Below are positions 12,484 through 41,021 of a stretch of DNA of 64,000 bases, one piece after another. Under the pieces are notes generated by a model that was not told the origin of the DNA, ran no database searches, and saw only the letters and a list, made by a program, of their open reading frames with translations. The stretch lies in NCBI RefSeq assembly GCF_055900595.2, contig NZ_CM148325.1. The stretch is one strand, 5' to 3'. A program made the translations under genes and the position numbers. Each line of letters begins with the position of its first letter. The first letter of the stretch is position 1.

Positions 12484-12540
12484 AAATCAGTTCCTTTCAT
12501 TCAGAAATCAGTCAGGCCACCGCGGTGGCCTGATAACGTG

Positions 12541-12888
12541 TTACGGCAGCGCCGCGTGACTCAGGGCACTGCCAGCAAAGGCGTTGGCCTTTTTGTGTTC
12601 ATCCACACTGTCAGGCCAGCGGATTGCCTCCGTCGCAAAAGTCCCCGACTTGTAATACGTCAGCACCGTCTCTGTGCCTTCAAGCGGCAGTACCAGTATG
12701 CCAACCGCACCTCCGGCTTTCTGTCCGTCCCAGACCACCAGTTTCCCGGTGGCTTCATCCAGCATCAGGGGCGTCAGTGCCGGTGTTGCCGAGGAAATCC
12801 CGCTGCTGCCTGTGGCGGTGTGAGCCGGATCATTACCGGCAAAAATACGTACTTCCGCACGCTGTTCAGTGATGGTTTTCGTTACCAT
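12541..12888 (-). CDS. D: head decoration protein D
   Basis: 115-aa ORF (lambda D 110 aa); synteny. Confidence 0.85.
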   Translation of the reverse strand: MVTKTITEQRAEVRIFAGNDPAHTATGSSGISSATPALTPLMLDEATGKLVVWDGQKAGGAVGILVLPLEGTETVLTYYKSGTFATEAIRWPDSVDEHKKANAFAGSALSHAALP

Positions 12889-12924
12889 ATTGTCAAAACC
12901 TCCTATTGATGGTCAGCACTGACT

Positions 12925-14430
12925 TCATGGCATGGCCATGAGCATTTTCACGTCCGCATCACCGTCTGCTGACGTCTGTGGCACGCCACCCTGTACCGCT
13001 GCCGGTGAATGGTTCGCCATGAAATGTTCAAACATGGCGGTTGTGGATGCAGAGACCGGTTCTGCCTTACCTGATCCCGCAGCCAGCACAGCCCGGGCGT
13101 TCTCCACGGTCATTCCCGGGCAGGCAGCCAGCTGTTCAGCCTGCGCCTCAGCCCCTTTTGCCTCATCCAGGGCCATGATCTGATCACGGAGTGATGGTCC
13201 GGCATCCGCCTGCGGTGAAGCTGCCAGGATCGGGCGGGCTTTTTCCACCGTCATCTCCGGCATCGCCGCCAGCGTTGCCGCCAGTTGTTCACGACCTTTC
13301 GCCTCTTCACACGCCATAATGCGATCGGCTTCACTCTGCGCGGATGCCACCGGCTGCTGTGGTGCCGCCGCGGCCAGGATCTCCCGGGCCTGTTCAACGC
13401 TCATGCCCTGTTGTCCCGCCAGCATCGTGGCAAGCTGTTCACGTCCTTTCGCTTCCTTACTCGTCAGGATCCCCATCACTCGCTGGTTCTCCTGCGCGGC
13501 GGCTTCCGTTGCAGTTAATTGCGGCATAGTGCCTCCTGTATCATGTGTGTACAGCGCCGTGGTCATCACACTGATGGCATCCGACGCATTGACTAATTCA
13601 TCCGCCAGCCCGGCCTCAATGCCGGACTGACCTTCAAAAACGGCGGCCTCTGTTCCCGTGACCACATCCACAGACAGCCCGGTATACATCGCCACTTTTT
13701 CGGCAAACATCCGGTGTGCCGCATCAATGCGCTGCTGCATGTCCTGACGCACCTCTTCCGGTAAGGCTTCAAACTGATTGCCATCCACCTTGTGCGCCCC
13801 GGCATAAATCAGCGTGATATCCACACCGGCCTGCGCCAGATGACCGGCATAGCTGAGATGGCTCATCATCACGCCAATGGAGCCGATACGGGATGTCTGG
13901 GTAACCAGCCGTCGGGAGCAGGCCGACGCCAGCAGCATGGCTGCAGAACAGGCCGTGTCATTGCACAGTGCCCAGACCGGCTTCTGCTGACGGAGGCGGT
14001 AAATCATGTCAGCGCAGTCAAACGCGCCTGCGGCCTGCCCGCCCGGACTGTCAATGTCCAGCAGTACGCCCCGGACAGCGGTGTCCGCCATTGCCTGCTG
14101 AAGACAGGCGACAATGCCGTCATAGCCTGTCATTCCGGAAAATGGCCGCATACCACCCAGCCGGTGCACCAGCATGCCGGTCACCGGCAGTACAGCAATA
14201 CCGTTCACCACCCGGTAAACACGGGCCGGTCGTTTACCTCCGGCCATGTACTCGTCCGTTTCAGCCAGCATTCCGGGAGCATCAAGCTGTACCTGCTGTT
14301 GTGGTACCGAAAGACTTGCTGCCCCCATCTCGCGCCCGAGCGCGCAAAAGAAAACCCGCGCATAGGCGGGCTCCAGAAGCAGCGGTTCATTGAATGCTGC
14401 GGCAATAATGTGTGAAAGATTACGTCTCAC
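12925..14430 (-). CDS. C: head maturation protease C / scaffold Nu3 (S49 peptidase family)
   Basis: 501-aa ORF; N-terminal S49/ClpP-like protease region; C-terminal Ala/Glu-rich scaffold-like region with three tandem repeats. Confidence 0.85.
   Translation of the reverse strand: MRRNLSHIIAAAFNEPLLLEPAYARVFFCALGREMGAASLSVPQQQVQLDAPGMLAETDEYMAGGKRPARVYRVVNGIAVLPVTGMLVHRLGGMRPFSGMTGYDGIVACLQQAMADTAVRGVLLDIDSPGGQAAGAFDCADMIYRLRQQKPVWALCNDTACSAAMLLASACSRRLVTQTSRIGSIGVMMSHLSYAGHLAQAGVDITLIYAGAHKVDGNQFEALPEEVRQDMQQRIDAAHRMFAEKVAMYTGLSVDVVTGTEAAVFEGQSGIEAGLADELVNASDAISVMTTALYTHDTGGTMPQLTATEAAAQENQRVMGILTSKEAKGREQLATMLAGQQGMSVEQAREILAAAAPQQPVASAQSEADRIMACEEAKGREQLAATLAAMPEMTVEKARPILAASPQADAGPSLRDQIMALDEAKGAEAQAEQLAACPGMTVENARAVLAAGSGKAEPVSASTTAMFEHFMANHSPAAVQGGVPQTSADGDADVKMLMAMP
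13065..13495 (-). repeat. three in-frame tandem repeats (~45 aa each) in the scaffold part of C/Nu3
   Basis: Protein repeats ...EAKGREQLATMLA...SVEQAREILAAA / ...EAKGREQLAATLA...TVEKARPILAAS / ...EAKGAEAQAEQLA...TVENARAVLAAG; coordinates approximate. Confidence 0.6.
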
Positions 14431-16012
14431 GTGGTGTTGTCTCCTCTTCCGGCCTGCGACTCGCCGCTATCTGCTGCTGATACGCCTGCGCTATCCACAC
14501 CGGACGTGAGAGTCCGGCTTTTTCCCGCTCTGCAGATTCCCTGACCTGCTGGCGGAAAATGTCCTGATAATCCTCACCCATCAGCGCCAGCTCTTTCTCA
14601 TACGTGCTCAGTCCGGCCTCAATGCGCATCACCGATTCCTGGACCTCCTTGAGCCCGTCAATGGCCATTCTTCCGGCTCCAATCCACTCTGCCCGTGACC
14701 AGGATGAACGCGCCTGATAAAAATCAAAACGCGCCCGTGGCGGACGAATAATCCCCCGCAGAAGAGCCTCTTCCAGCCAGCAGGAAAACATCTGCGTGGC
14801 CAGCCGGGCCGCAATAAATTTTCGCCGCCCCATAAAATAGCGCCACGACTCATTGGCGGAGGCGCGGGCACTTGAATAACTGACCTTCGAGTAATCACGG
14901 GACAACTGTTCGTAGGAAACGCCAAGACCGGCGGCGATATACCGCAGCAGCGCCTGTTCAAGCGCAGAAAATCCATTGTCTGAATCCTGCGCAGTCTGTA
15001 GTTTCAGATCATCACCGGGGAAAAGGTGCGGAATTTTGACACCGCCCAGTGTCACGTTATTCGTGTCATACCAGCTGGAAAACTTCTCCAGAATATTAAT
15101 AAGCGGATTATCCTTCTGCTCCTGCGGCGCACCGGCGATATATTCAAAGGCCTTTTCGGTATCAAGTTCACTTTCAATCGTCGCTGCATACATGGCCCTC
15201 ACTATGGCCGACTGAAGCTGTGTTGCCTGCAGGGAATCGAGCATCTTCAGCCGTTCCATGACGCTGTAAAACTGATTAGCCCCACGGGTCTGCCCGTCCT
15301 CCACCGGCTCGAAAATATGCAGCATGGCCGGACGCCCGGTGGGAAGTTCACGCGGGATCCGTTCCCATCGTCCACTACCAGAGAACGGAAAATCATCCTC
15401 ACAGATATGGTACGCGACGGCACGGCCATATCGATCGACCTCCACACCGGCCCGCAGAAAACGGTTCCCCATACCGTGTCCTGGCGTGTCCACCCGTTTC
15501 GGACTCACGGCTTTAAAACGCGTACGGAATAACTGCGTGGTTTCCGTATCCCAGACCGGCTGAACAAAGATTTCGCCGTTAAACGCATGAACGCCCACAC
15601 CTTCACGGATAAATTCCGTGAACGTGCGTTTTCCTTCCACATCGATCTCGCCAGACATCCCTTCGGCGTATTCCGACCAGGCCGCCTCCACCTCATCGAC
15701 AAAGCTTTTTGCTGCGGTCTCCCGCATCCCCAGCCAGCGCCAGTTCGGACGGTAGCTGATCAGAAACATATGCCCGACTATGTGATCCTTATGCAGAGCC
15801 ACCGCATTAGCCGCTATTCCGTTATTGCGCACCAGATCATCTGCCCGGGCATTCCCCAGACGCAACGCGGGCAGCAGGGCCGCATCGACACTCTGTGCCG
15901 GTGGCAACCACTCCTCCATTTGCCCGCCAAATCCTGCGCCGCCCCCGTTGTAGCTGAGACTCTCACGAAGCGGAACGCCGTTCACATCAATCAGGACAGG
16001 CGTTCTTTTCAT
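14420..16012 (-). CDS. B: portal protein B
   Basis: 530-aa ORF (lambda B 533 aa); synteny. Confidence 0.9.
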   Translation of the reverse strand: MKRTPVLIDVNGVPLRESLSYNGGGAGFGGQMEEWLPPAQSVDAALLPALRLGNARADDLVRNNGIAANAVALHKDHIVGHMFLISYRPNWRWLGMRETAAKSFVDEVEAAWSEYAEGMSGEIDVEGKRTFTEFIREGVGVHAFNGEIFVQPVWDTETTQLFRTRFKAVSPKRVDTPGHGMGNRFLRAGVEVDRYGRAVAYHICEDDFPFSGSGRWERIPRELPTGRPAMLHIFEPVEDGQTRGANQFYSVMERLKMLDSLQATQLQSAIVRAMYAATIESELDTEKAFEYIAGAPQEQKDNPLINILEKFSSWYDTNNVTLGGVKIPHLFPGDDLKLQTAQDSDNGFSALEQALLRYIAAGLGVSYEQLSRDYSKVSYSSARASANESWRYFMGRRKFIAARLATQMFSCWLEEALLRGIIRPPRARFDFYQARSSWSRAEWIGAGRMAIDGLKEVQESVMRIEAGLSTYEKELALMGEDYQDIFRQQVRESAEREKAGLSRPVWIAQAYQQQIAASRRPEEETTPRET

Positions 16013-16215
16013 AACCTCACTCCCAGCGGACGACGGCGACGTCGGGTTGTCCCCAGTACCGACTCCGCATCATTGATCGCCCGGTTAAGCTCATCCAGAG
16101 AAGCCGCCGTATATTCAATTCTGCGACCATCTTTCTGGACAGACACCACCCGTTTACCGGTTAATAAATCAAGGCGCGCCTGACGCAGCGCCTGCAGTTC
16201 AGCGACTGTAACCAT
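16009..16215 (-). CDS. W: head-tail joining protein W
   Basis: 68-aa ORF; motif LLTGKRVVSVQKDGRRIEYT resembles lambda W. Confidence 0.8.
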   Translation of the reverse strand: MVTVAELQALRQARLDLLTGKRVVSVQKDGRRIEYTAASLDELNRAINDAESVLGTTRRRRRPLGVRL

Positions 16216-16546
16216 TCACTCCTCCGGACAGCTTCGCTGCCAGTTCTTTAAGGGTTGGCCGGGTCGTCTCTTCTTCCCGGGATTTTGCCAGTACAGCCAG
16301 ATCAAGCTGCCAGCGTTGCACGGACACACGTAATGCCGCGTAGGCATACACCAGGCAGTCCAGCGCTTCGTTACGCCGCTTTTTGTTATCCCACAGCAGA
16401 CGCATCTTTCCTTTTTCCCACTTCTCCACAAGCTCTTCCGCGGCCAGTTGCTGCGCCTCTGTCTGCGAAAAAATCTCCGGATCATCAGGAAAACGGATGG
16501 CATACGACGTGGCTTCATCCGCAGGCGTGGGATCGGCTTTCATACG
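16199..16546 (-). pseudogene. A: terminase large subunit A, C-terminal fragment (gene split by IS insertion)
   Basis: Frame encodes ...YRMKADPTPADEATSYAIRFPDDPEIFSQTEAQQLAAEELVEKW..., continuing the sequence at which the N-terminal fragment stops. Confidence 0.85.
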
Positions 16547-16599
16547 GTAACCGGCTCATTTAAACCGTCTGGTCTGTTTCCTCCGGCTCTACAAAAATA

Positions 16600-17277
16600 A
16601 TGTCCATCATTTTTAATGGACACTATCGTATGAAACACCGGACCTGGATCACTGAAGCTTTACGTCTTCACTTTGAAGAACATTTACCCCGGGTTGTGGC
16701 CGGGCGTCGCCTGGGTGTACCAAAATCAACAGTTTGTAGTATGTTCGTGCGCTTTCGGAGAGCTGGCCTTTCGTGGCCTTTGCCCGCAGGCATGTCGGAG
16801 CAGGAACTTGATGCCTGCCTTTACGGACAATTTTCCACGGTACCAGTCGTACGTCCTGAAAGCACCGTTATATCCGAAGCCCCCGTGGTAAAAAAACGTC
16901 CCCGGCGGCCCAACTTCCCTTATGAGTTTAAAATCGCCTTAGTGGAGCAGTCACTGCAGCCCGGAGCCTGTGTGGCGCAGATCGCCCGGGAAAACGGAAT
17001 CAACGATAACCTGCTCTTCAACTGGCGCCATCAATACCGGAAAGGTGGCCTGCTGCCTTCCGGAAAAAATATGCCGGCACTGCTTCCCGTGACGTTAACG
17101 CCGGAGCCGGATAATAAAATCCCGGCCCCCGCACAGGAACCAGAGCGGATAAATACACCGTCCGACAGTCTGTGTTGTGAGCTGGTTCTGCCGGCCGGAA
17201 CTCTCAGGCTTAAAGGTAAACTGACGCCGGCGTTATTACAGACACTTATCCGCGAAATAAAAGGGAGCAGCCACTGA
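16600..17277 (+). CDS. IS66 accessory protein TnpA (orf1)
   Basis: First ORF of the IS66-type operon; stop overlaps the next start (TGATGA); true start may be an internal Met. Confidence 0.8.
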   Translation: MSIIFNGHYRMKHRTWITEALRLHFEEHLPRVVAGRRLGVPKSTVCSMFVRFRRAGLSWPLPAGMSEQELDACLYGQFSTVPVVRPESTVISEAPVVKKRPRRPNFPYEFKIALVEQSLQPGACVAQIARENGINDNLLFNWRHQYRKGGLLPSGKNMPALLPVTLTPEPDNKIPAPAQEPERINTPSDSLCCELVLPAGTLRLKGKLTPALLQTLIREIKGSSH

Positions 17278-17624
17278 TGATATCTCTCCCTGCAGGTTCG
17301 CGTATCTGGCTGGTTGCAGGTATCACCGATATGCGAAATGGCTTTAACGGCCTGGCATCAAAAGTTCAGAACGTCCTGAAGGATGACCCGTTCTCCGGAC
17401 ACCTGTTCATCTTCCGCGGACGCCGGGGTGACCAGATAAAAGTGTTGTGGGCTGACAGTGACGGACTGTGCCTCTTCACCAAACGCCTGGAGCGGGGCCG
17501 CTTCGTCTGGCCAGTCACCCGTGACGGCAAGGTGCACCTTACTCCGGCTCAGTTATCCATGCTTCTTGAAGGTATCAACTGGAAGCACCCGAAACGAACG
17601 GAACGCGCTGGAATCCGCATATAA
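17277..17624 (+). CDS. IS66 accessory protein TnpB (orf2)
   Basis: 115-aa ORF, typical IS66 Orf2 size and position. Confidence 0.85.
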   Translation: MISLPAGSRIWLVAGITDMRNGFNGLASKVQNVLKDDPFSGHLFIFRGRRGDQIKVLWADSDGLCLFTKRLERGRFVWPVTRDGKVHLTPAQLSMLLEGINWKHPKRTERAGIRI

Positions 17625-17643
17625 CCCGTTGTAAAGTGAGGAT

Positions 17644-19215
17644 ATGGACACCTCACTTGCTCATGAGAACGCCCGCCTGCGGGCACTGTTGCAGACGCAA
17701 CAGGACACCATCCGCCAGATGGCTGAATACAACCGCCTGCTCTCACAGCGGGTGGCGGCTTATGCTTCCGAAATCAACCGGCTGAAGGCGCTGGTTGCGA
17801 AACTGCAACGTATGCAGTTCGGTAAAAGCTCAGAAAAACTTCGTGCAAAAACCGAACGGCAGATACAGGAAGCACAGGAGCGAATCAGCGCACTTCAGGA
17901 AGAAATGGCGGAAACGCTGGGTGAGCAATATGACCCGGTACTGCCATCCGCCCTGCGCCAGTCTTCAGCCCGTAAACCGTTACCGGCCTCACTTCCCCGT
18001 GAAACCCGGGTTATCCGGCCGGAAGAGGAATGCTGTCCTGCCTGTGGTGGTGAACTCAGTTCTCTGGGATGTGATGTGTCAGAGCAACTGGAGCTTATCA
18101 GCAGCGCCTTTAAGGTTATCGAAACACAACGTCCGAAACAGGCCTGTTGCCGGTGCGACCATATCGTGCAGGCACCAGTACCTTCAAAACCCATTGCACG
18201 CAGTTATGCCGGAGCGGGGCTTCTGGCCCATGTTGTCACCGGGAAATATGCAGACCATCTGCCGTTATACCGCCAGTCAGAAATATACCGTCGTCAGGGA
18301 GTGGAGCTGAGCCGTGCCACACTGGGGCGCTGGACAGGTGCTGTTGCTGAACTGCTGGAGCCGCTGTATGACGTCCTGCGCCAGTATGTGCTGATGCCCG
18401 GTAAAGTCCATGCTGATGATATCCCCGTCCCGGTCCAGGAGCCGGGCAGCGGTAAAACCCGGACAGCCCGGCTGTGGGTCTACGTCCGTGATGACCGTAA
18501 CGCCGGTTCACAGATGCCCCCGGCGGTCTGGTTCGCGTACAGTCCGGACCGGAAAGGTATCCATCCACAAAATCACCTGGCCGGTTACAGCGGTGTGCTT
18601 CAGGCCGATGCTTACGGTGGTTACCGGGCGTTATACGAATCCGGCAGAATAACGGAAGCCGCGTGTATGGCTCATGCCCGGAGAAAAATCCACGATGTGC
18701 ATGCAAGAGCGCCCACCTACATCACCACGGAAGCCCTGCAGCGTATCGGTGAACTGTATGCCATCGAGGCAGAGGTCCGGGGCTGTTCAGCAGAACAGCG
18801 TCTGGCGGCAAGAAAAGCCAGAGCCGCGCCACTGATGCAGTCACTGTATGACTGGATACAGCAACAGATGAAAACACTGTCGCGTCACTCAGATACGGCA
18901 AAAGCGTTCGCATACCTGCTGAAACAGTGGGATGCACTGAACGTGTACTGCAGTAATGGCTGGGTGGAAATCGACAACAACATCGCAGAGAACGCCTTAC
19001 GGGGAGTGGCCGTAGGCCGGAAAAACTGGATGTTCGCGGGTTCCGACAGCGGTGGTGAACATGCGGCGGTGTTGTACTCGCTGATCGGCACATGCCGTCT
19101 GAACAATGTGGAGCCAGAAAAGTGGCTGCGTTACGTCATTGAACATATCCAGGACTGGCCGGCAAACCGGGTACGCGATCTGTTGCCCTGGAAAGTTGAT
19201 CTGAGCTCTCAGTAA
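17644..19215 (+). CDS. IS66-family transposase TnpC (orf3)
   Basis: 523-aa ORF; N-terminal leucine-zipper-like region, CxxC...CxxC zinc motif (CCPACGG...CCRCDH), DDE-type core. Confidence 0.9.
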
Positions 19216-19241
19216 ATATCAATACGGTTCTGACGAGTCGC

Positions 19242-20834
19242 TTACTTCATACGGGCATAGAGAATTTCTTTTGCGGTGTCCGTCCCCACTTCACACAGAT
19301 ACACGCCCCGCTGATTGCGGGTTTTTGGCATGGTGATCACCGGCTTGCCATAGACAGATGCGCCTTTTACCGGCAGCACCCGGAAAACACCGTGTTTTTT
19401 TGACCTCTGATAAACGATTTCGCCATCGATCCCCCCGATGTCCCAGCAGACACGGGAAATGGTCATTTCGGTTCCGTCTGCATGGCGGTATTTTTTGTTG
19501 ATCGCTGCATCCACACGTAACAGCGTCTCTTCCTCATCGGGACGTCCCATAATAATGATTTTATCCACCAGAAAGGCTTCCTCTCCCGGAGCCCATCCCC
19601 AGACATACATCTCAAAACGGTTTCGCTGCGAGTCAATGCCCGCCGTCAGATAAACCACCCGGGCAGGCACCGCCGCCGTGTAACGCACAACCTTATCCAT
19701 CAGTACCTGGTGATCGAGTTTTTCGCCCACGGCCTCTTCCCAGGTCTCGCCCAGCGTGGTGTTCACAAAGGTTTTCAGGCCGTTGGGATCTTTCAGTGCA
19801 TCCAGCCAGTCATAGACTATCTGTACCCAGGTGGTGAACGGACTGTACGCCGTCCAGATATGGAAAGTGATGGAGCGCGGCGGCGGAATTTCATCACCCC
19901 GGGCGCTGAAAAACATCAGGCCGTCACGGGTCCACATGCCCGTGTTTTCAGAGATCCACCGCCCGTTACTCTGGTCAAGCTCAGACTGATGGATCACACA
20001 GCCATGATGCTCACAAAGGTAGAAAACGCTTTCGGGGCTGTCCTTCTCCCATTTAAGGCCAAAAGGCGTGGATTCATCGCCAAATTTCAGATACTGCTCC
20101 TCCCCACAGTGCGGGCAGGGCACATAAAAACGCATGAAATGTGCCGACTCGTTAGCGGCTTTTTCGATCTGGCAGGAGCCTTTGATTTTAGGCGTCGAGC
20201 CGCGAATGGATTTTGGCCATACAGAGCCCTCAATACGCTTATCCCCCAGCAGGGTTGGCGAGCCCTCTTTTTCAACATCAGGTTCAAACGATGAGAGTTC
20301 GTCATAGCAGACCACGTCCACGGATTTTTCACGGTAGTTTTTTGCTGCCGCACCACCCAGGCACCAGAAGCCCACACCCGATGAAAAGCGTTTCAGCGTG
20401 AGAGTATTGTCACGATGTTTACGCCCCAGCCATGGAGAAAGGTCTTTCAGACATGGCACATCCCGAATCGTCGCCTCCACGTGAGACTTCATAAAATCTT
20501 CAGCGGCAGAATCCGTGGGCTGAAAAAGCAGACTGTTTCGGGATTTATGCTCAATAAAATACCCGACCACCCCCAGCAACATCTTTGTATAACCAACACG
20601 GGCAGATTTAATCAGGTTAACAGTGCGAATCAGATCGTTGCCCATACAGTTCATGATGGCGATCTGGAACGGCAGCGTTTTCCATTCTCCCTCACCATAT
20701 GAAGATTCTTTAGGCAGATAATAATTTTGATCAGCCCATTCAACTGCCGTCACCGGCAATGCCCTTATCAGGGGCTGTAATGCTGTTGTGACAGCACTCA
20801 TCATATTATTCAGTTGTTGCTCTGATATATTCAT
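19242..20834 (-). pseudogene. A: terminase large subunit A, N-terminal fragment (truncated by IS66 insertion)
   Basis: Starts MNISEQQLNN..., contains TAVEWADQNYYLPKES and KNYREKSVDV (Walker-like) as in lambda gpA; the stop codon lies inside the IS end. Confidence 0.9.
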
Positions 20835-21315
20835 CGAGTAAATCCGGTAATTTATCCCCTGCCCGCGCACACTGATTTGCCCCCTTCGCAATAAGGGTTT
20901 TCAGATGGTCAAGATGGCGCGGTGTTAAATCAGGAAACTGTCGTTGCATGGATAAAGGGATGGAATCAAGCGTACTGGATAACGCCATTGCCAGCTTGCT
21001 GAGGGCAAAAATACAGAACCCGGTGTCAATAAGTTTTCCTTTTGACACCTCATTTTTTAACTGCTGTGTAACAGCCTGTTCTGCTGTCAGTTCCCATCTG
21101 GCAATAAGCAATTTCTCCTCATAGTCGTCTTCGCTATCGCCATCAGGCACATCGTTTTTACTTCTTCTCAGATACGATATGTAAAAATCACGCCAGGCAT
21201 CCAGATCCAGTTGCCCTCGCTTATTCGATATCGGGGCACCCGGCAATTTCTGCAGTCTGCGAAGCTGGCGATCGGTCAGACTCAAATGCCTGGCAACTTC
21301 AGTCTGCGTAGCCAC
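20806..21315 (-). CDS. nu1: terminase small subunit Nu1
   Basis: 169-aa ORF; N-terminal HTH (MATQTEVARHLSLTDRQLRRL); overlaps start of A; cos immediately upstream. Confidence 0.8.
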   Translation of the reverse strand: MATQTEVARHLSLTDRQLRRLQKLPGAPISNKRGQLDLDAWRDFYISYLRRSKNDVPDGDSEDDYEEKLLIARWELTAEQAVTQQLKNEVSKGKLIDTGFCIFALSKLAMALSSTLDSIPLSMQRQFPDLTPRHLDHLKTLIAKGANQCARAGDKLPDLLDEYIRATTE

Positions 21316-21379
21316 TGTTCACCTCGCAAAAAATCTCCCCTCATGCGTTTTAAACATGCATCTTGCGAGCAACTTTATG

Positions 21380-21545
21380 CAAACGCACGCATATGTCCGG
21401 TTTGTTTGTACATTTTTTGCACATGTCCGGTTCGCAGAAAGCATGTTTTTATATTTTTCATATAGTTAACTTGCAGAGAAACCGGACATGGATCCCGGAA
21501 AATTTTCATAAATAGCGAAAACGCGCGAGGTCGACGCCCCGTAAC
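21380..21545 (-). promoter_or_regulatory. cos region (cosB-like terminase binding repeats and cosN)
   Basis: Repeated ATGTCCGGTT elements at ~21395, ~21421 and inverted at ~21482; 21528-21540 reverse complement GGGGCGTCGACCT resembles lambda cohesive end GGGCGGCGACCT. Confidence 0.7.
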
Positions 21546-23265: not shown

Positions 23266-23748
23266 TCATCGAAGGCATTGCGTCCTGATGTATTCCTGAA
23301 GCGTTCTCAGTGCTGTCTGGTCGCGGATAATTCCGTCCCGGATACCGAGAACGTTTCGTCCAGCAACTGGAGAGAGTTCGACGGTGGCATCATTGCCCAT
23401 GCCGGAGGCGCTGGAGGTTTCGGCTGAGGATGGCACAGGGCATTTTCCTTTGACGAGCACCCTGCCACCATTATCAAGCTTGCGCCGAAGAGCATCATTT
23501 TCAGCTTTCGCATCAGCTAACTCCTTCGTGTATTTTGCATCGAGCGCAGCAACATCACGCTGACGCTGCTGCATGTCAGCGATGGTGGCGGTCGCCTGCT
23601 TCAGCTCACTGACTTTTTTATCACGTTGTTCTTTGTAGGCTATGGCGTTATCACGGTAATGATTGACCGCCAACGACAGGCAGACGATGATGCAGATAAC
23701 CAGAGCATAAATAATCGCGGCGACTCTGCTCACTGATCTATCCCCCAA
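23266..23748 (-). CDS. Rz: spanin inner-membrane subunit Rz
   Basis: N-terminal TM segment [28 protein letters not shown] and [24 protein letters not shown] match lambda Rz; start uncertain. Confidence 0.9.
23307..23513 (-). CDS. Rz1: spanin outer-membrane lipoprotein Rz1 (embedded in Rz, +1 frame)
   Basis: [21 protein letters not shown] lipobox and Pro-rich [13 protein letters not shown], like lambda Rz1. Confidence 0.85.
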
Positions 23749-24263
23749 CAGGCTAATGCGCTTTCCTGGTCACGACGAATAACCTGTCCATAGCAGTTAT
23801 TTGAACGGATACGGCAGTCACGCCCACCATCCTTTATCCACCAGCGAATCGCCTCGCAGGCGCCTTTTCGATCACCGGCATTAAGCCGCTTATAAAACGT
23901 CGACGGGAAACACTTACCGGGGCCAATGTTATAGGGACAGAATGACGCAATACCCGCTTTCTGTGGTTCGGTCAGAGGTACTTTAATATTGCGCTCCACC
24001 CATGCCAGTGCCTTATCACGTTCAATAGCGTTAACCTGGTCGCATTTTTCCTTCGACAGCTTCATTCCGGGAAAAACGGGTTTTCCATCCACCATCGTGG
24101 CACCCCGACAGATGGTCCAGATGCCGGACCCATCGCGGTATGCCGTTGTGTGGTTACCCTCTTTTTCGTCCAGAAACTGATCAAGTATCTGAGGAGCAGA
24201 TGCGCCAGCACCAATCAGCGCCAGAACGGCAGCCGACAGGCCGTATCTGATTTTTGCGTTCAT
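23730..24263 (-). CDS. R: SAR endolysin (T4-lysozyme-like, GH24)
   Basis: N-terminal weakly hydrophobic Gly/Ala-rich segment [16 protein letters not shown]; catalytic E..D..T spacing ([24 protein letters not shown]). Confidence 0.85.
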
Positions 24264-24386
24264 GTATATTTATCAGGATCTAAAGGTTTATAACCCTGGA
24301 TATATCAGGTATATAATCCAGTACCAGCATGTCTCATAAACATACCCGTTCAGGAAAACCAAACGACAACAGATGAGGCTTCAGAA

Positions 24387-24764
24387 ATGAACAGTAAAGA
24401 AAATTTGCGCAGTAGATTTTTGCAACTAATGACAGAAAAAGTTAAATCAGCGCTACTTCCACTTATGGTGGATAATAACGAAGCAACGAGCAGCATCCTT
24501 GCAGACCCTTACGGTAAACTCTCGCATAAAACGCTGGATATTATTATGAGTGCATTAACACCCCGTATGCTTCAACACCTGAAACAAGATATTAACGCAT
24601 GGGTGAATGAAGAATTGAGCCCCCCCTGTTCATGGGACAGACATTATGCATGGCAGCAAAAAATGAGGATTTTCAATTCATTATCACTAAAGTTCAGAGA
24701 ACCGAAACAGCGTCCCTTCCCTCTGGAATCAGACAAAAAACAACCTGATCCCACAGGCCCGTAA
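24387..24764 (+). CDS. hypothetical protein inserted between holin and endolysin on the opposite strand
   Basis: 125-aa ORF; position analogous to ydfR between essQ and rrrQ in the K-12 Qin prophage (sequence similarity not verified). Confidence 0.5.
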   Translation: MNSKENLRSRFLQLMTEKVKSALLPLMVDNNEATSSILADPYGKLSHKTLDIIMSALTPRMLQHLKQDINAWVNEELSPPCSWDRHYAWQQKMRIFNSLSLKFREPKQRPFPLESDKKQPDPTGP

Positions 24765-24920
24765 TATTTTGAATACCGTGATTATTGATATCACAATGAA
24801 AGCTATTCCGCACAGTTATGCCCTGCTCCCCACGGGGCATGCCTCATGAAACGTTCCGGGCGTTTCATGTTCCCGGATTTTGTTAAAAGGTATATTATCC
24901 CCTCACTCCCGGGATATTCG

Positions 24921-25193
24921 TCATATTTCTTTTGGTGCCTTTTTCGCAATCTCAGCCACAGCATGTGCCGTAGCCGGAACATTACCGGCATTAGTTCGTT
25001 CCAGAATTTCGAGCAATATGCGGGTTCGTTTTTCCTGCTCCCGTTTGTTAAGGCGATAAGTAAGAACGCCAAGAATGATACTGAACGCCACGCCGATAAT
25101 AAATCCCCAATCCTGCAGTGACAGGCTGGCAAAGAACGCAACAAGTCCTGCGCTGCCGTATGCAGCGTTACTGTATCGTTCGTCCATTCTCAT
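24921..25193 (-). CDS. S: class II holin (phage-21 S-like pinholin) with dual-start motif
   Basis: Starts MRMDERY (Met1-Arg-Met3); two TM segments (GLVAFFASL / GFIIGVAFSIILGVLTY); charged C-terminus; paired with a SAR endolysin. Confidence 0.8.
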   Translation of the reverse strand: MRMDERYSNAAYGSAGLVAFFASLSLQDWGFIIGVAFSIILGVLTYRLNKREQEKRTRILLEILERTNAGNVPATAHAVAEIAKKAPKEI

Positions 25194-25608: not shown

Positions 25609-25685
25609 TGGACCGCCACCGGGGACTCGAACCTCGCACACTCAACTTAAAGGGTTGACGCTCTTTCCTGATGAGCTAGTGGCGG
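25609..25685 (-). tRNA. tRNA, identity uncertain (anticodon loop CCUUUAA)
   Basis: Acceptor CCGCCAC/GTGGCGG, D-arm GCTC..GAGC, anticodon stem TCAAC/GTTGA, T-loop TTCGAGT, 3' CCA encoded; position 33 is C rather than U. Confidence 0.65.
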
Positions 25686-25687
25686 TT

Positions 25688-25762
25688 GGTGGCCCTTGCT
25701 GGATTTGAACCAGCGACCTGGCGATTATGAGTCGCTCGCTCTCACCACTGAGCTAAAGGGCC
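25688..25762 (-). tRNA. ileZ: tRNA-Ile2 (CAU anticodon; ileX/ileZ-like)
   Basis: Reverse complement GGCCCTTTAGCTCAGTGGTGAGAGCGAGCGACTCATAATCGCCAGGTCGCTGGTTCAAATCCAGCAAGGGCCACCA is a near-match to E. coli ileX; T-arm GCTGG-TTCAAAT-CCAGC. Confidence 0.85.
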
Positions 25763-28897: not shown

Positions 28898-29053
28898 TTA
28901 CTCCTCAGGTTCGTAAGCTGTGAAGACAGCGACCTCCGTCTGGCCGGTTCGGATTCGTACCTCGCAGAGGTCTTTCCTCGTTACCAGTGCCGTCACAATG
29001 ACGGTAATACAGATGACGATCAGGGCGACTAACATCGCCTTTTGCTGCTTCAT
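28898..29053 (-). CDS. hok: Hok/Gef-family type I toxin (in-frame upstream extension to 29110 is mok-like)
   Basis: MKQQKAMLVALIVICITVIVTALVTRKDLCEVRIRTGQTEVAVFTAYEPEE resembles Hok (single TM, conserved C...EVA.F.AYE); inverted repeat GGCGAGGGATTTCTCCCTCGCC in the 3' region. Confidence 0.85.
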   Translation of the reverse strand: MKQQKAMLVALIVICITVIVTALVTRKDLCEVRIRTGQTEVAVFTAYEPEE

Positions 29054-29264
29054 AGCCTGCTTCTCCTTGCCTTTCGGCACGTAAGAGGCTAACCTAGATT
29101 TGCCGTTCATAGATTGAGCCTCAGATTAATGTTAAGCGTCTTGCCGGACGCGTAATGTTAACTGGGGCTTTTCTCTATCTGCCTTTTGGGGTTCATGCCT
29201 GAGACAGATAGCCTCAAGCACCCGCTGCAATTCTACTTAACTCTCCTTTTCCCGCAAACCGTTT

Positions 29265-35420: not shown

Positions 35421-36208
35421 CAGACCCCTCAGAGGATACCACCTCGCCTGACGTGGTTAAAAGCAGGCACACAACACGAAAGCGCACGGCGAGGTAGCTG
35501 GTTCATATATAGCCTGTCGTTAAATTTTCGTCGACCGTGCGCTTCCGGTTGTGGCACTCCGCGAAATGGCGCGGCGGTAAGCATGGCGGGGTTCCCTTCC
35601 CCTTGAGGACACCGGGTTGTCAGGTTGACCATGCGCCTGAGTGACAACCCCGCTGCAACGCCCTCTGTTATCAATTTTCTGGTGACGTTTGGCGGTATCA
35701 GTTTTACTCCGTGACTGCTCTGCCGCCCTTTTTAAAGTGAATTTTGTGATGTGGTGAATGCGGCTCAGCGCACGCGGAACAGTTAAAACCAAAAACAGAG
35801 TTATGGGTGGATTCTCTGTATCCGGCGTTAATTGTTAACTGGTTAACGTCACCTGGAGGCACCTGGCACCGCATCAACAAAGTTCACTTCGGTGATGAAA
35901 GGTAAGAGAAAATGTTGAATGTAGCTATTGAAAACCAGTACGGGTGGAATTATAGTGCACCTGCACCTCATAAAACGGGTGCCGGGCGTGGAAACCCGAA
36001 AGTTACTCGAGCGCATAACCGCGCCGAAGCGGTTTTTTTATGCGTAATGCACAGCCACATTCAGATAATGGTGGGGCGTGCAGGGCAGCTGCAAGGCTGG
36101 CCGGGTTCTCGAGTGACCGGTATTTCCACCCCTGTACGTCTCGCCACCCTTATGGTCGTGGAAAGCCTCGGTGGTGAGTTAATTAACTTAACACTTGAGG
36201 ATGCCATC

Positions 36209-36760
36209 ATGGCTACTACCCTTACCCTTTCTCACCCTGACGTAACCATTGAAAATGGTCGCGCTGTCACTACGTCTATTGCGATCGCAGAATTCTTCGG
36301 CAAGCAGCATCACCATGTTGTTCAAAAAATAGAGGCCCTCGAATGTTCTGAACGCTTTTTAACCAGCAACTTTTCGCGGGTTAAATTCGAGCACCGTGGC
36401 AATACCTACAATGCCTACCAAATCACCAAAAACGGCTTCGTTTTCCTGGTGATGGGCTTCACCGGCAAAAAGGCCGCTGCATTCAAGGAAGCCTACATTG
36501 CCGAGTTCGACCGCATGGAGGAAGAACTGCGCCGGAATAACACCACACCCGCTGACAAAATAATCCCGGGTGATGGCCGCACCCTGGTTATCCGCTTCGA
36601 CGAACACGGCTACATCAAATTCACCGAAACCGTTCCTGATGGCGCACTGGTCTGTACTCTGGATACTTTCCGTTTTTATCTGGAAAAGCAGGGATGGACT
36701 CTCATAAACCGGGGCGCAATTAAAAATATGACCGTCGAGCAGTTGCTGAGTATTAAATAG
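36209..36760 (+). CDS. Rha-family phage regulatory protein
   Basis: ORF 35912..36760; probable start MATTLTLSHPDV; motif TTSIAIAEFFGKQHHHVVQKIEAL typical of Rha. Confidence 0.7.
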   Translation: MATTLTLSHPDVTIENGRAVTTSIAIAEFFGKQHHHVVQKIEALECSERFLTSNFSRVKFEHRGNTYNAYQITKNGFVFLVMGFTGKKAAAFKEAYIAEFDRMEEELRRNNTTPADKIIPGDGRTLVIRFDEHGYIKFTETVPDGALVCTLDTFRFYLEKQGWTLINRGAIKNMTVEQLLSIK

Positions 36761-39664: not shown

Positions 39665-39913
39665 ATGGCAAGACTTATTCTGCTCACTGAGTGGGCAAAA
39701 GAGGAATTCAGTGAACCGGTCCCTAGTCCGGGTACGTTAAGTAAATACGCTAAAGCCGGAATGATATTTCCTCTCCCCAAAAAAGTAGGAAGGCACTGGC
39801 GAGTGGATCCACGCGCTCGCTTTGTCGGAATGGTAAACAAGCCGGAGGTGATCGCCACAGATCACCCTGCTTTGAAGAGGATACTGGAAGATGGCGCGCC
39901 CGCGAAAATATAA
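39665..39913 (+). CDS. xis: excisionase (Xis)
   Basis: 82-aa ORF overlapping the int start; motif resembles lambda Xis. Confidence 0.75.
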   Translation: MARLILLTEWAKEEFSEPVPSPGTLSKYAKAGMIFPLPKKVGRHWRVDPRARFVGMVNKPEVIATDHPALKRILEDGAPAKI

Positions 39914-41021
39914 AACCGATGTTCCGGGTTTATCTCCGTATTTTGACAAAAGAAATAACAAAGTTTACTGGCGTTACAGGCATCCCATCACAGGTAAAAA
40001 TCATGGACTCGGCAGTATTGACCAGAAACTGGCGGAAACCATTGCAGCAGAAGCGAACAGCCGTCTTGCCAGACAACAAATGGAGCAAATGCTCAGTCTG
40101 CAGGAGAAAATTATTAGTGATACCGGCGGCGCATCAACCGTTTCCATTTTTCTGAATAATTACAGAAAAATTCAACAGGAAAGATATGAGAACGGAGAGA
40201 TCAAACTCAGCACGCTGAAGCAAAAAGCGGCTCCTCTCAGGGTGTTTGATGAACGTTTTGGAGCCAGGCCGCTAGATGCCATAACCGTAAAAGATGTGGT
40301 ATCGGTGCTGGAAGAATACAAGGCAAAGGGACATAACAGAATGGGACAAATTTTCAGGAAGGTATTGATCGATGTTTTCCGGGAGGCTCAACAAACGGGT
40401 GATGTTCCGCCAGGCTTTAACCCGGCTGAATCGGCAAAAAAACCGCAAGTGCGGATATCAAGACAGCGACTGACTTTTGATGAGTGGATGATGATTTATA
40501 ACGCAGCGGAAAAGGATGGTTACTTTTTACAGCGCGGCATGCTGCTGGCACTGATGACGGGCCAGCGTCTTTCGGATATTTGCAAAATGCAGTTTTCGGA
40601 TATCCGGGATGGTTACCTTCATGTCGAACAGCAAAAAACAGGAGCCCGGATAGCCATTCCTCTGGCTCTGCGTTGCGACAAATTAAATCTTACCCTGGGT
40701 GACGTGGTGTCATCCTGTCGTGATTACATCCTTAGTCCGTGGTTATTGCACCATCATCACGCTAAGGGGATGGGTAAGCGCGGCGGGATGGTTAAACCAG
40801 CAACATTAACAGTCGCATTTAAAAAAGCCCGGGATTCTGTGGATTACAACTGGCGTGCTAATGGCACGCCACCCTCTTTCCATGAGCAAAGATCTTTATC
40901 AGAACGATTGTTCAGAGAACAGGGAATTGATACCAAAATTTTGCTGGGCCATTCGAATCAAAAAATGACCGATATTTACAACGACGCACGCGGTAAAGAG
41001 TGGAAAAAACTGGTTATTTGA
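39891..41021 (+). CDS. int: tyrosine integrase (lambda Int family)
   Basis: 376-aa ORF; N-terminal arm-binding-like region; C-terminal catalytic region (...LLGHSNQKMTDIY) ; att junction immediately downstream. Confidence 0.9.
   Translation: MARPRKYKTDVPGLSPYFDKRNNKVYWRYRHPITGKNHGLGSIDQKLAETIAAEANSRLARQQMEQMLSLQEKIISDTGGASTVSIFLNNYRKIQQERYENGEIKLSTLKQKAAPLRVFDERFGARPLDAITVKDVVSVLEEYKAKGHNRMGQIFRKVLIDVFREAQQTGDVPPGFNPAESAKKPQVRISRQRLTFDEWMMIYNAAEKDGYFLQRGMLLALMTGQRLSDICKMQFSDIRDGYLHVEQQKTGARIAIPLALRCDKLNLTLGDVVSSCRDYILSPWLLHHHHAKGMGKRGGMVKPATLTVAFKKARDSVDYNWRANGTPPSFHEQRSLSERLFREQGIDTKILLGHSNQKMTDIYNDARGKEWKKLVI

Follow-up and report, generated by a model that had tools for sequence, protein, structure and literature searches.

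An ISCro1 insertion splits the large terminase subunit gene of a lambdoid prophage in the Escherichia coli chromosome

We analysed a stretch of 64,000 nucleotides (contig NZ_CM148325.1 of assembly GCF_055900595.2; hereafter the window), in which a lambdoid prophage adjoins ompW in the E. coli chromosome. Its packaging genes lie on the minus strand in the order Nu1-A-W-B-C, and gene A, which encodes the large terminase subunit and stands between Nu1 and the W and portal genes as a gpA gene should, is split by an insertion sequence. The features of the locus are as follows.

14420-16012, minus strand: portal gene B, intact, downstream of gene A (99.4%, full-length match)
16009-16215, minus strand: late gene W, intact, downstream of gene A (100%, full-length match)
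16199-16546, minus strand: 3' fragment of the terminase large-subunit gene, codons 528/529-642, with an orphan ORF from Met529 (16543)
16539-16546: left copy of the 8-bp target-site duplication TTCATACG, identical to 19246-19253
16547-19245, plus strand: ISCro1 (IS66 family), complete copy of 2699 bp, named by identity to RefSeq-named copies
16547-16568, plus strand: left terminal inverted repeat (IRL), GTAACCGGCTCATTTAAACCGT, starting GTAA, complementary to the right repeat at 16/22 positions
16600-17277, plus strand: tnpA, IS66-type accessory protein of 225 aa (NF038385 IS66_access_TnpA, 294.5 bits, cut-off 150)
17277-17624, plus strand: tnpB, IS66-family accessory protein of 115 aa (NF033819 IS66_TnpB, 128.9 bits, cut-off 50)
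17644-19215, plus strand: tnpC, IS66-family transposase of 523 aa (NF033517 transpos_IS66, 477.9 bits, cut-off 180)
19224-19245, plus strand: right terminal inverted repeat (IRR), reverse complement GTAAGCGACTCGTCAGAACCGT
19242-20834, minus strand: 5' fragment of the terminase large-subunit gene, codons 1-530, with ATG at 20834 and the stop TAA (19244-19242) inside the IS end
19246-19253: right copy of the target-site duplication TTCATACG, identical to 16539-16546
20806-21315, minus strand: terminase small-subunit gene (Nu1 type), intact, overlapping the gene A start (100% identity to Nu1 of strain Ch1, 169 aa)

The original prediction of a 2699-bp IS66-family element with three ORFs is borne out by the transposition genes, tnpA, tnpB and tnpC, which follow one another on one strand and all score far above the cut-offs of their NCBIfam equivalogs. 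The stop of tnpA and the start of tnpB share one base (TGATG), and the 678-nt tnpA is likewise annotated by RefSeq in identical ISCro1 copies. The element opens with the letters GTAACCGGCTC and closes with GAGTCGCTTAC, and its imperfect inverted repeats, of the GTAA type and the ~20-30 bp length typical of the family (GTAACCGGCTC... and GTAAGCGACTC...), agree with those described beforehand. Taken by itself, their match is unremarkable, being among 330 inverted pairs in the region; it is meaningful because the repeats sit exactly at the element ends, adjoining the duplication. Over its full length the element is 100% identical (2699/2699 bp) to many copies on E. coli chromosomes and plasmids, which carry the RefSeq/PGAP name 'IS66-like element ISCro1 family transposase'. 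This identity extends the family assignment to a name: the element is ISCro1, by proxy of the PGAP-named copies rather than of the ISfinder reference or the C. rodentium genome. Many E. coli genomes carry ISCro1 in multiple copies, with as many as 34 matching places in one genome, and at least 80% of it is found in 1399 plasmid records. Identical copies occupy 54 distinct sites, and the copy in the window is apparently active. Promoter or terminator signals within or around the copy did not exceed chance level.

As is usual for IS66 elements, an 8-bp direct repeat, here TTCATACG, flanks both ends, exactly at the limits first proposed (16539-19253); the probability of an exact 8-bp repeat arising by chance at two fixed positions is 1.5e-5. 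Once 16547-19253 is deleted, a 1929-bp gene results that has no mismatch and no gap relative to the uninterrupted terminase allele of E. coli GF4. Read support for the junctions, named beforehand as a check, came from the short-read run SRR27886137, in which two Logan contigs hold both junctions at 100% identity to the window; the run may derive from the window's own isolate, in which case it represents support by reads and not by a second strain. The copy number of ISCro1, and the fact that each of these contigs stops 30 nt into an ISCro1 end, would fit an assembly error, in which a misjoin mediated by repeats put a copy of the IS between the halves of an intact gene. We consider such an artefact extremely improbable, as an exact target duplication is not the product of a misjoin, the flanks rebuild a known intact allele base for base and both flank-IS junctions occur in a read-derived assembly. 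Among 5,426 complete E. coli genomes, the occupied site with flanks of 800 bp and longer had no single-piece match, the multi-piece matches representing ISCro1 at other positions; likewise, the exact 36-nt left junction was absent from IMG/VR, JGI metagenomes and GTDB representative genomes.

The gene so interrupted belongs to the lambda gene A type; by sequence it is closest to that of phage 21, with 93% nucleotide identity to the phage 21 terminase over the query's first 1.5 kb. When restored, its product is 66% identical to lambda gpA in an end-to-end alignment of 639 aa and has both domains expected of a gpA of ~640 residues, Pfam GpA_ATPase at 48-293 and GpA_nuclease at 323-601 (E-values 1.2e-54 and 2.7e-70). 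NCBIfam models matched neither the terminase fragments nor Nu1, while Pfam models did match, Phage_Nu1 finding the identical small-subunit gene in L020. No homologue of solved structure was found for the terminase by sequence. A longer, TTG-initiated ORF (19242-20891) probably does not mark the true start, as lambda gpA too begins MNIS.

ISCro1 interrupts the 642-codon gene after Lys530, within GpA_nuclease. The 5' fragment, to which residues 1-530 of the intact Ch1 protein align, keeps the whole of GpA_ATPase and the first part of GpA_nuclease, while residues 531-642, comprising the end of GpA_nuclease and the C-terminal tail, are removed and their 112 codons left 3' as an orphan fragment. 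That the flanks are two parts of one terminase gene, and that the N-terminal part stops inside the IS end, had both been proposed and both hold: the product ends ...TDTAKEILYARMK*, its last residue being exactly K530, since the TAA is provided by the GTAA terminus of the IS. The further statement that both fragments read YARMK was slightly wrong, being at fault for the C-terminal side, which reads ...AGYRMKADPT. The duplicated 8 bp encode R-M-K only; GTA in the end of the IS happens to provide the Y, and the Met is preceded by a stop four codons upstream.

Taken together, we find it very probable that ISCro1 moved by transposition into gene A of the lambdoid prophage, leaving an 8-bp duplication, a truncated protein and a packaging defect. 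In this sequence of events, an 8-bp staggered cut would have left TTCATACG duplicated, and the shortened protein would retain its ATPase domain. The prohead portal is a binding partner of lambda gpA (Yeo and Feiss 1995, as cited in PMC2366019). The prophage alone would no longer cut cos or package its own DNA, because its terminase is without the C-terminal tail and the last part of the nuclease domain. The portal-binding part of gpA is, in the work of Yeo and Feiss, reportedly its last ~32 residues. Judging from domain limits and lambda genetics, the prophage's own copy of gene A is most likely inactive, and to this extent the expectation that packaging is abolished stands; for the cell as a whole it goes too far, since a co-resident terminase could supply packaging, as in Sp4 of strain Sakai.

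What the window holds of the remaining prophage bears little sign of decay, and its description as cryptic was overstated. Within the window, which excludes the left end of the prophage, the 44 other proteins compared with those of strain Ch1, which run from the integrase to tail protein I, all have their full length, and the reading frame of J stays open over 1056 codons, up to where the window ends. A holin candidate, a lysozyme and Rz are present. Losses in several of the induction, replication, lysis and morphogenesis functions, the mark of a cryptic prophage, were not seen, gene A alone being interrupted in the window. Because the other compared genes are full length and J is open to the window edge, the prophage should still be inducible and lytic. 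The insertion also looks recent, because the IS and the target allele are undiverged from other copies and the 44 compared proteins are full length. As for the defence loci that had been proposed, PADLOC assigned none of the ten accessory prophage ORFs to a defence family and returned only generic HTH matches to a repressor-like protein.

These observations raise the question of whether the prophage is cryptic at all, or whether it excises, replicates, lyses and is then packaged by a near-identical terminase of a co-resident prophage or repaired by recombination. Apart from the full-length regulatory, replication, lysis, head and tail genes among those compared in the window, a precedent exists in O157 Sakai, where the DNA of Sp4 is packaged despite an IS-disrupted nu1, most likely by the terminase of Sp14, the cos sites being nearly identical (PMC2669165). 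Further, the median number of matching places in E. coli genomes with this terminase-portal block is 2. Nevertheless, the 64-kb window holds no second terminase, and complementation in Sakai is inefficient. We regard this reading as rather unlikely, and prefer the account in which the insertion leaves the prophage unable to package by itself.

We also considered whether the insertion was a random, neutral event. The same two ISCro1 ends occur at 17 other distinct sites (19 loci), with an own 8-bp duplication at all but one, STEC388, which is linked to a deletion. In or near the head-gene block, ISCro1 was found in 25 of the 5,426 complete genomes in both orientations; a bias of orientation relative to the late operon was rejected, with 10 genomes sharing the window's orientation and 15 having the opposite one. 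At least seven further independent insertions fall in gene A, and a 43-bp stretch of the protease gene holds three; every one of them has a duplication of its own. Five pairs lie within 45 bp where 1.14 are expected (P about 0.008). These numbers would fit selection for particle-deficient lysogens, or a regional hot spot of ISCro1 among the packaging and head genes of lambdoid prophages. However, detection was biased towards gene A because the search was centred there, and in the evenly sampled 6.2 kb the enrichment of gene A is weak (7/12 events versus 31% of length, P about 0.047). As a general hot spot for ISCro1, the terminase gene is unsupported beyond the targeted search, with none of 35 distinct insertions on IMG/VR contigs lying in a terminase gene. 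The pile-up of IS elements in prophages, where insertions are tolerated, is known (PMC3072379), and since losing the terminase does not stop lysis, the host has nothing obvious to gain from it. Also, the window's own duplication is a poor fit to the weak target consensus. A hot spot or selection behind this insertion thus appears quite improbable. Insertions do lie within tens of base pairs of one another in two genes of a single lambdoid head-gene block, those for the protease and the terminase; that target choice by ISCro1 is non-random we hold to be marginally less doubtful, although still unlikely. Were a true regional preference behind these clusters, ISCro1 would inactivate packaging genes recurrently and predictably, and would thereby drive prophage immobilisation in E. 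coli.

On target choice itself, the 8-bp duplications at the 54 distinct sites have a weak palindromic preference, roughly G-N-T/A-W-W-A-N-C, with C adjoining IRL in 31/54 sites and A three bases in from IRL in 32/54. In the literature covered, a search on target specificity in the IS66 family returned nothing relevant.

The insertion of ISCro1 into a prophage gene is real but ordinary, in that both the element and the kind of event are already known. For annotation, the two terminase pieces should be treated as one pseudogene interrupted by ISCro1, and the prophage scored as packaging-defective by itself, not as decayed. Such scoring matters for induction or transduction work with the strain and for automatic calls of prophage 'intactness'. 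Because its junction was found in one sequencing run only (SRR27886137), the insertion could prove useful for marking a lineage. The side observation on target choice could feed a systematic study, although it is not established here.

Compared with known systems, the terminase shares two Pfam domains with lambda gpA and phage 21 gp2, within the same Nu1-A-W-B-C gene order, but differs from them in its interruption after residue 530, which makes a full-length product impossible. The element itself is no different from the copies that RefSeq names ISCro1, an element first named in Citrobacter rodentium ICC168, with the same three genes, ends and 8-bp duplication; only the insertion site is new relative to the collections searched. 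In ICC168, ISCro1 is the most expanded IS, with 24 copies, and more than half of all IS elements lie on other mobile elements (PMC3072379). The nearest counterparts are gene A insertions in E. coli 16843, Z1322HEC0009, 602354, BEN2908, APEC E19035 and its relatives, 23CRST047/049 and WS3294A, which involve the same IS, flanks 97-99% identical and an 8-bp duplication each, and whose fragments RefSeq annotates as partial terminase pseudogenes. They differ from the window in position (the nearest, in strain 16843, is 32 bp off) and in duplication, occur in both orientations and are independent events. In several O157:H7 genomes, including EDL933, another IS66-family element, ISEc8, sits in the same head-gene block. 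Finally, Sp4 of E. coli O157:H7 Sakai is likewise a lambdoid prophage with an IS in a terminase gene (PMC2669165); there it is the small subunit (nu1) that is hit and further defects are present, whereas here ISCro1 disrupts the large subunit in a prophage that otherwise looks intact within the window.

Here, we find that a terminase large-subunit gene of the lambdoid prophage is interrupted by a single copy of a known IS66-family element, ISCro1, and relate this insertion to its empty site, to other insertions of the same element and to the state of the prophage. An 8-bp direct duplication, TTCATACG, is present at both 16539-16546 and 19246-19253, and the 2699 bp between the two copies begin with GTAACCGGCTC and end with GAGTCGCTTAC. 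The terminal inverted repeats are imperfect (16 of 22 positions paired) and inverted pairs of comparable quality are frequent in the region (330 listed); the repeat is meaningful only because it lies exactly at the element ends, adjoining the duplication. Three open reading frames are found within the element.

Open reading frames of the inserted element, with NCBIfam equivalog matches
16600-17277, + strand, IS66 TnpA, 294.5 bits (cut-off 150)
17277-17624, + strand, IS66 TnpB, 128.9 bits (cut-off 50)
17644-19215, + strand, IS66 transposase, 477.9 bits (cut-off 180)

The boundaries, duplication, inverted repeats and three reading frames of the original prediction were thus all seen as it described them, and its assignment to the IS66 family is borne out by all three proteins scoring above their cut-offs. 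TnpB of IS66 elements is an accessory protein with no known role, and it is not known to be related to the RNA-guided IS200/IS605 protein that bears the name TnpB. The full 2699 bp are 100% identical to copies in numerous E. coli chromosomes and plasmids, labeled in RefSeq as 'IS66-like element ISCro1 family transposase' plus tnpA and tnpB, and it is on this annotation, by proxy for the ISfinder reference, that we base the name ISCro1. At least 80% of the element is present in 1492 of 5426 complete genomes, and it is also frequent on plasmids, mainly conjugative, of Escherichia, Shigella, Salmonella, Klebsiella and Citrobacter. The name ISCro1 goes back to Citrobacter rodentium ICC168, in which no other insertion sequence has expanded as much (PMC3072379).

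On the - strand, the element is flanked by the two parts of one terminase large-subunit gene. When 16199-16546 is joined to 19254-20834, the result is a 642-codon frame with both expected Pfam domains, GpA_ATPase (48-293) and GpA_nuclease (323-601), which confirms that the insertion splits this gene. The restored protein and lambda gpA share 66% identity from end to end; at the DNA level, the gene is 93% identical to the phage 21 terminase and 96% identical to that of the 'PhiR12' phage group. The restored 1929-bp gene aligns to the uninterrupted terminase gene of E. coli GF4 with 0 mismatches and 0 gaps. The GF4 allele is therefore a perfect empty-site control, and the whole difference is explained by one transposition with an 8-bp duplication. 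The GF4 prophage (NZ_CP172217.1) has the same terminase allele but has lost the stretch that runs from midway through the portal gene to the tail-fibre region; the two related prophages have decayed by different routes.

A misjoin during assembly could also place an insertion sequence within a gene, but this explanation is countered by the target duplication, the exact empty site and the presence of both junctions in read-derived contigs. A protein look-up found both truncated proteins on two separate contigs in the Logan assembly of run SRR27886137, which match the window with 100% identity along 3655 and 6378 bp. One stops 30 nt into the right inverted repeat (IRR) and the other begins 30 nt into the left (IRL), as is expected for a multi-copy insertion sequence in short-read assembly; since they reach into both ends of the element, both junctions exist in read-derived data. 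This run, which probably stems from the window's source strain or one very closely related to it, is our only other record of the insertion: the exact junction was not found in 5,426 complete E. coli genomes or in IMG/VR, JGI metagenomes and GTDB representatives. Because element and target allele are both identical to other copies, the insertion looks recent.

At the right junction, the - strand reads CGT ATG AAG TAA, so that the N-terminal product ends in ...ILYARMK, its last residue being number 530, and gains no foreign residues. As had been proposed, the stop lies inside the element end; it is supplied by the GTAA terminus. The left junction reads ...TAA GCC GGT TAC CGT ATG AAA GCC (*AGYRMKA). 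The original prediction that both fragments read YARMK consequently stands for the N-terminal side but not for the C-terminal side, the duplicated part being only R-M-K.

We searched the 5,426 complete E. coli genomes with ISCro1, in either orientation, set inside 6.2 kb of flanking sequence. It lies in or near the head-gene block (window 12500-21400) in 25 genomes, oriented as in the window in 10 of them and the other way round in 15, indicating no orientation bias there. The 19 loci that were read and their ends mapped (L001, L002, L004-L008, L010-L013, L015-L019, L022-L024) represent 17 distinct sites, with their own 8-bp duplication at all but one. Besides the window's, gene A carries seven independent database events, the nearest 32 bp away, and the 5' end of the protease gene carries three insertions within 43 bp. 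In the 6.2 kb that were sampled evenly, more sites lie close together than expected (5 pairs within 45 bp, where 1.14 would be expected; P about 0.008). Gene A makes up 31% of this length and takes 7 of the 12 events, a marginal excess (P about 0.047). Of 35 distinct ISCro1 sites in IMG/VR contigs, none lies in a terminase gene. We read this recurrence as the ordinary build-up of a very active insertion sequence in prophage DNA where insertions are tolerated, with some local hot spots perhaps contributing. In STEC388 (NZ_CP041425.1), the exception that has no target duplication, ISCro1 joins the remnants of the portal gene and of tail assembly gene T, both truncated, consistent with IS-mediated deletion of head and proximal tail genes. 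Other IS66-family insertions were seen as well: in the protease gene of E. coli B1_2 and AUSMDU00014361, ISCro1 adjoins ISEc22, of which B1_2 carries another copy in its portal gene, and ISEc8 occupies the same block in O157:H7 strains, EDL933 among them.

When the left flanks of 54 distinct sites were pooled (window 16517-16546 and loci L001-L060), the ISCro1 duplications proved non-random, with an A/T-rich center.

Favored bases in the 54 left flanks, numbered back from IRL (-1, last base of the duplication; -8, first)
-1, C, 31/54
-3, A, 32/54
-6, A or T, 44/54
-8, G, 20/54
-10, C, 26/54

This weak palindromic preference, G-N-T/A-W-W-A-N-C, is a small-sample result (54 sites), separate from the main finding; the window's own duplication fits it poorly, and our literature search found no published account of ISCro1 target preference.

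The window begins within tail gene J, open for 1056 codons, and continues in the order I-K-L-M-H-T-G-V-U-Z-FII-FI-E-D-C-B-W-A-Nu1, followed by lysis genes, Q, replication genes, the immunity region, exonuclease, xis and int. The lysis set comprises a holin candidate, lysozyme and Rz.

Prophage features
23730-24263, lysozyme gene
24921-25193, - strand, holin candidate
39891-41021, int, then chromosomal genes adjoining ompW

A full prophage closely related to this one lies at ompW in strain Ch1, and its terminase gene is uninterrupted. The 44 other Ch1 proteins compared all have full-length counterparts in the window, most of them with 97-100% identity (V, 86%, I, 88%, and G, 67%, are more divergent), making the insertion the sole visible defect within the window. 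To call the prophage cryptic, as originally predicted, is too strong, as there is no sign that induction, excision, replication or lysis is lost. Nor do the predicted defence loci find support, the PADLOC matches of the ten accessory frames being generic HTH only. Several smaller features accompany these genes. About 660 bp (24264-24920) separate lysozyme gene and holin candidate, and contain an opposite-strand frame of 125 aa (24387-24764; no PADLOC match) at a position occupied in related prophages by a hypothetical gene that is partial or frameshifted. In the early region, a 51-aa hokD-type toxin gene, 100% identical to the Ch1 copy, and a full-length sok antitoxin RNA match (RF01794, 112 bits) occupy 28901-29223. 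DicF (RF00039), isrK (RF01394) and C4 antisense RNA (RF01695) matches at 35677-36151 sit upstream of and within the start of a Rha-family gene (35912-36760), beside kil. Two tRNA genes lie downstream of Q (25609-25762), tRNA-Lys(TTT) and one with a CAT anticodon, called Met by ARAGORN and, in related prophages, Ile by RefSeq.

Overall, this is a correct description of a known insertion sequence in a well-understood setting and is not surprising, but the insertion deserves recording for annotation and as a potential strain marker. Functionally, the truncated terminase keeps its ATPase domain but neither its C-terminal tail nor the final part of its nuclease domain. Portal binding by lambda gpA belongs to its extreme C-terminus. 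Given the loss of nuclease end and tail, and since gpA of lambda is a portal-binding protein (Yeo and Feiss 1995, cited in PMC2366019), the prophage's own terminase gene is most likely null. The predicted abolition of packaging would hold for this gene copy, but a helper terminase, if the strain has one, could package the prophage; among genomes that carry this terminase block, the median number of matching places is two. Such a situation is known from O157 Sakai, in which Sp4 is packaged despite an IS-disrupted terminase, probably via the terminase of Sp14 (PMC2669165).
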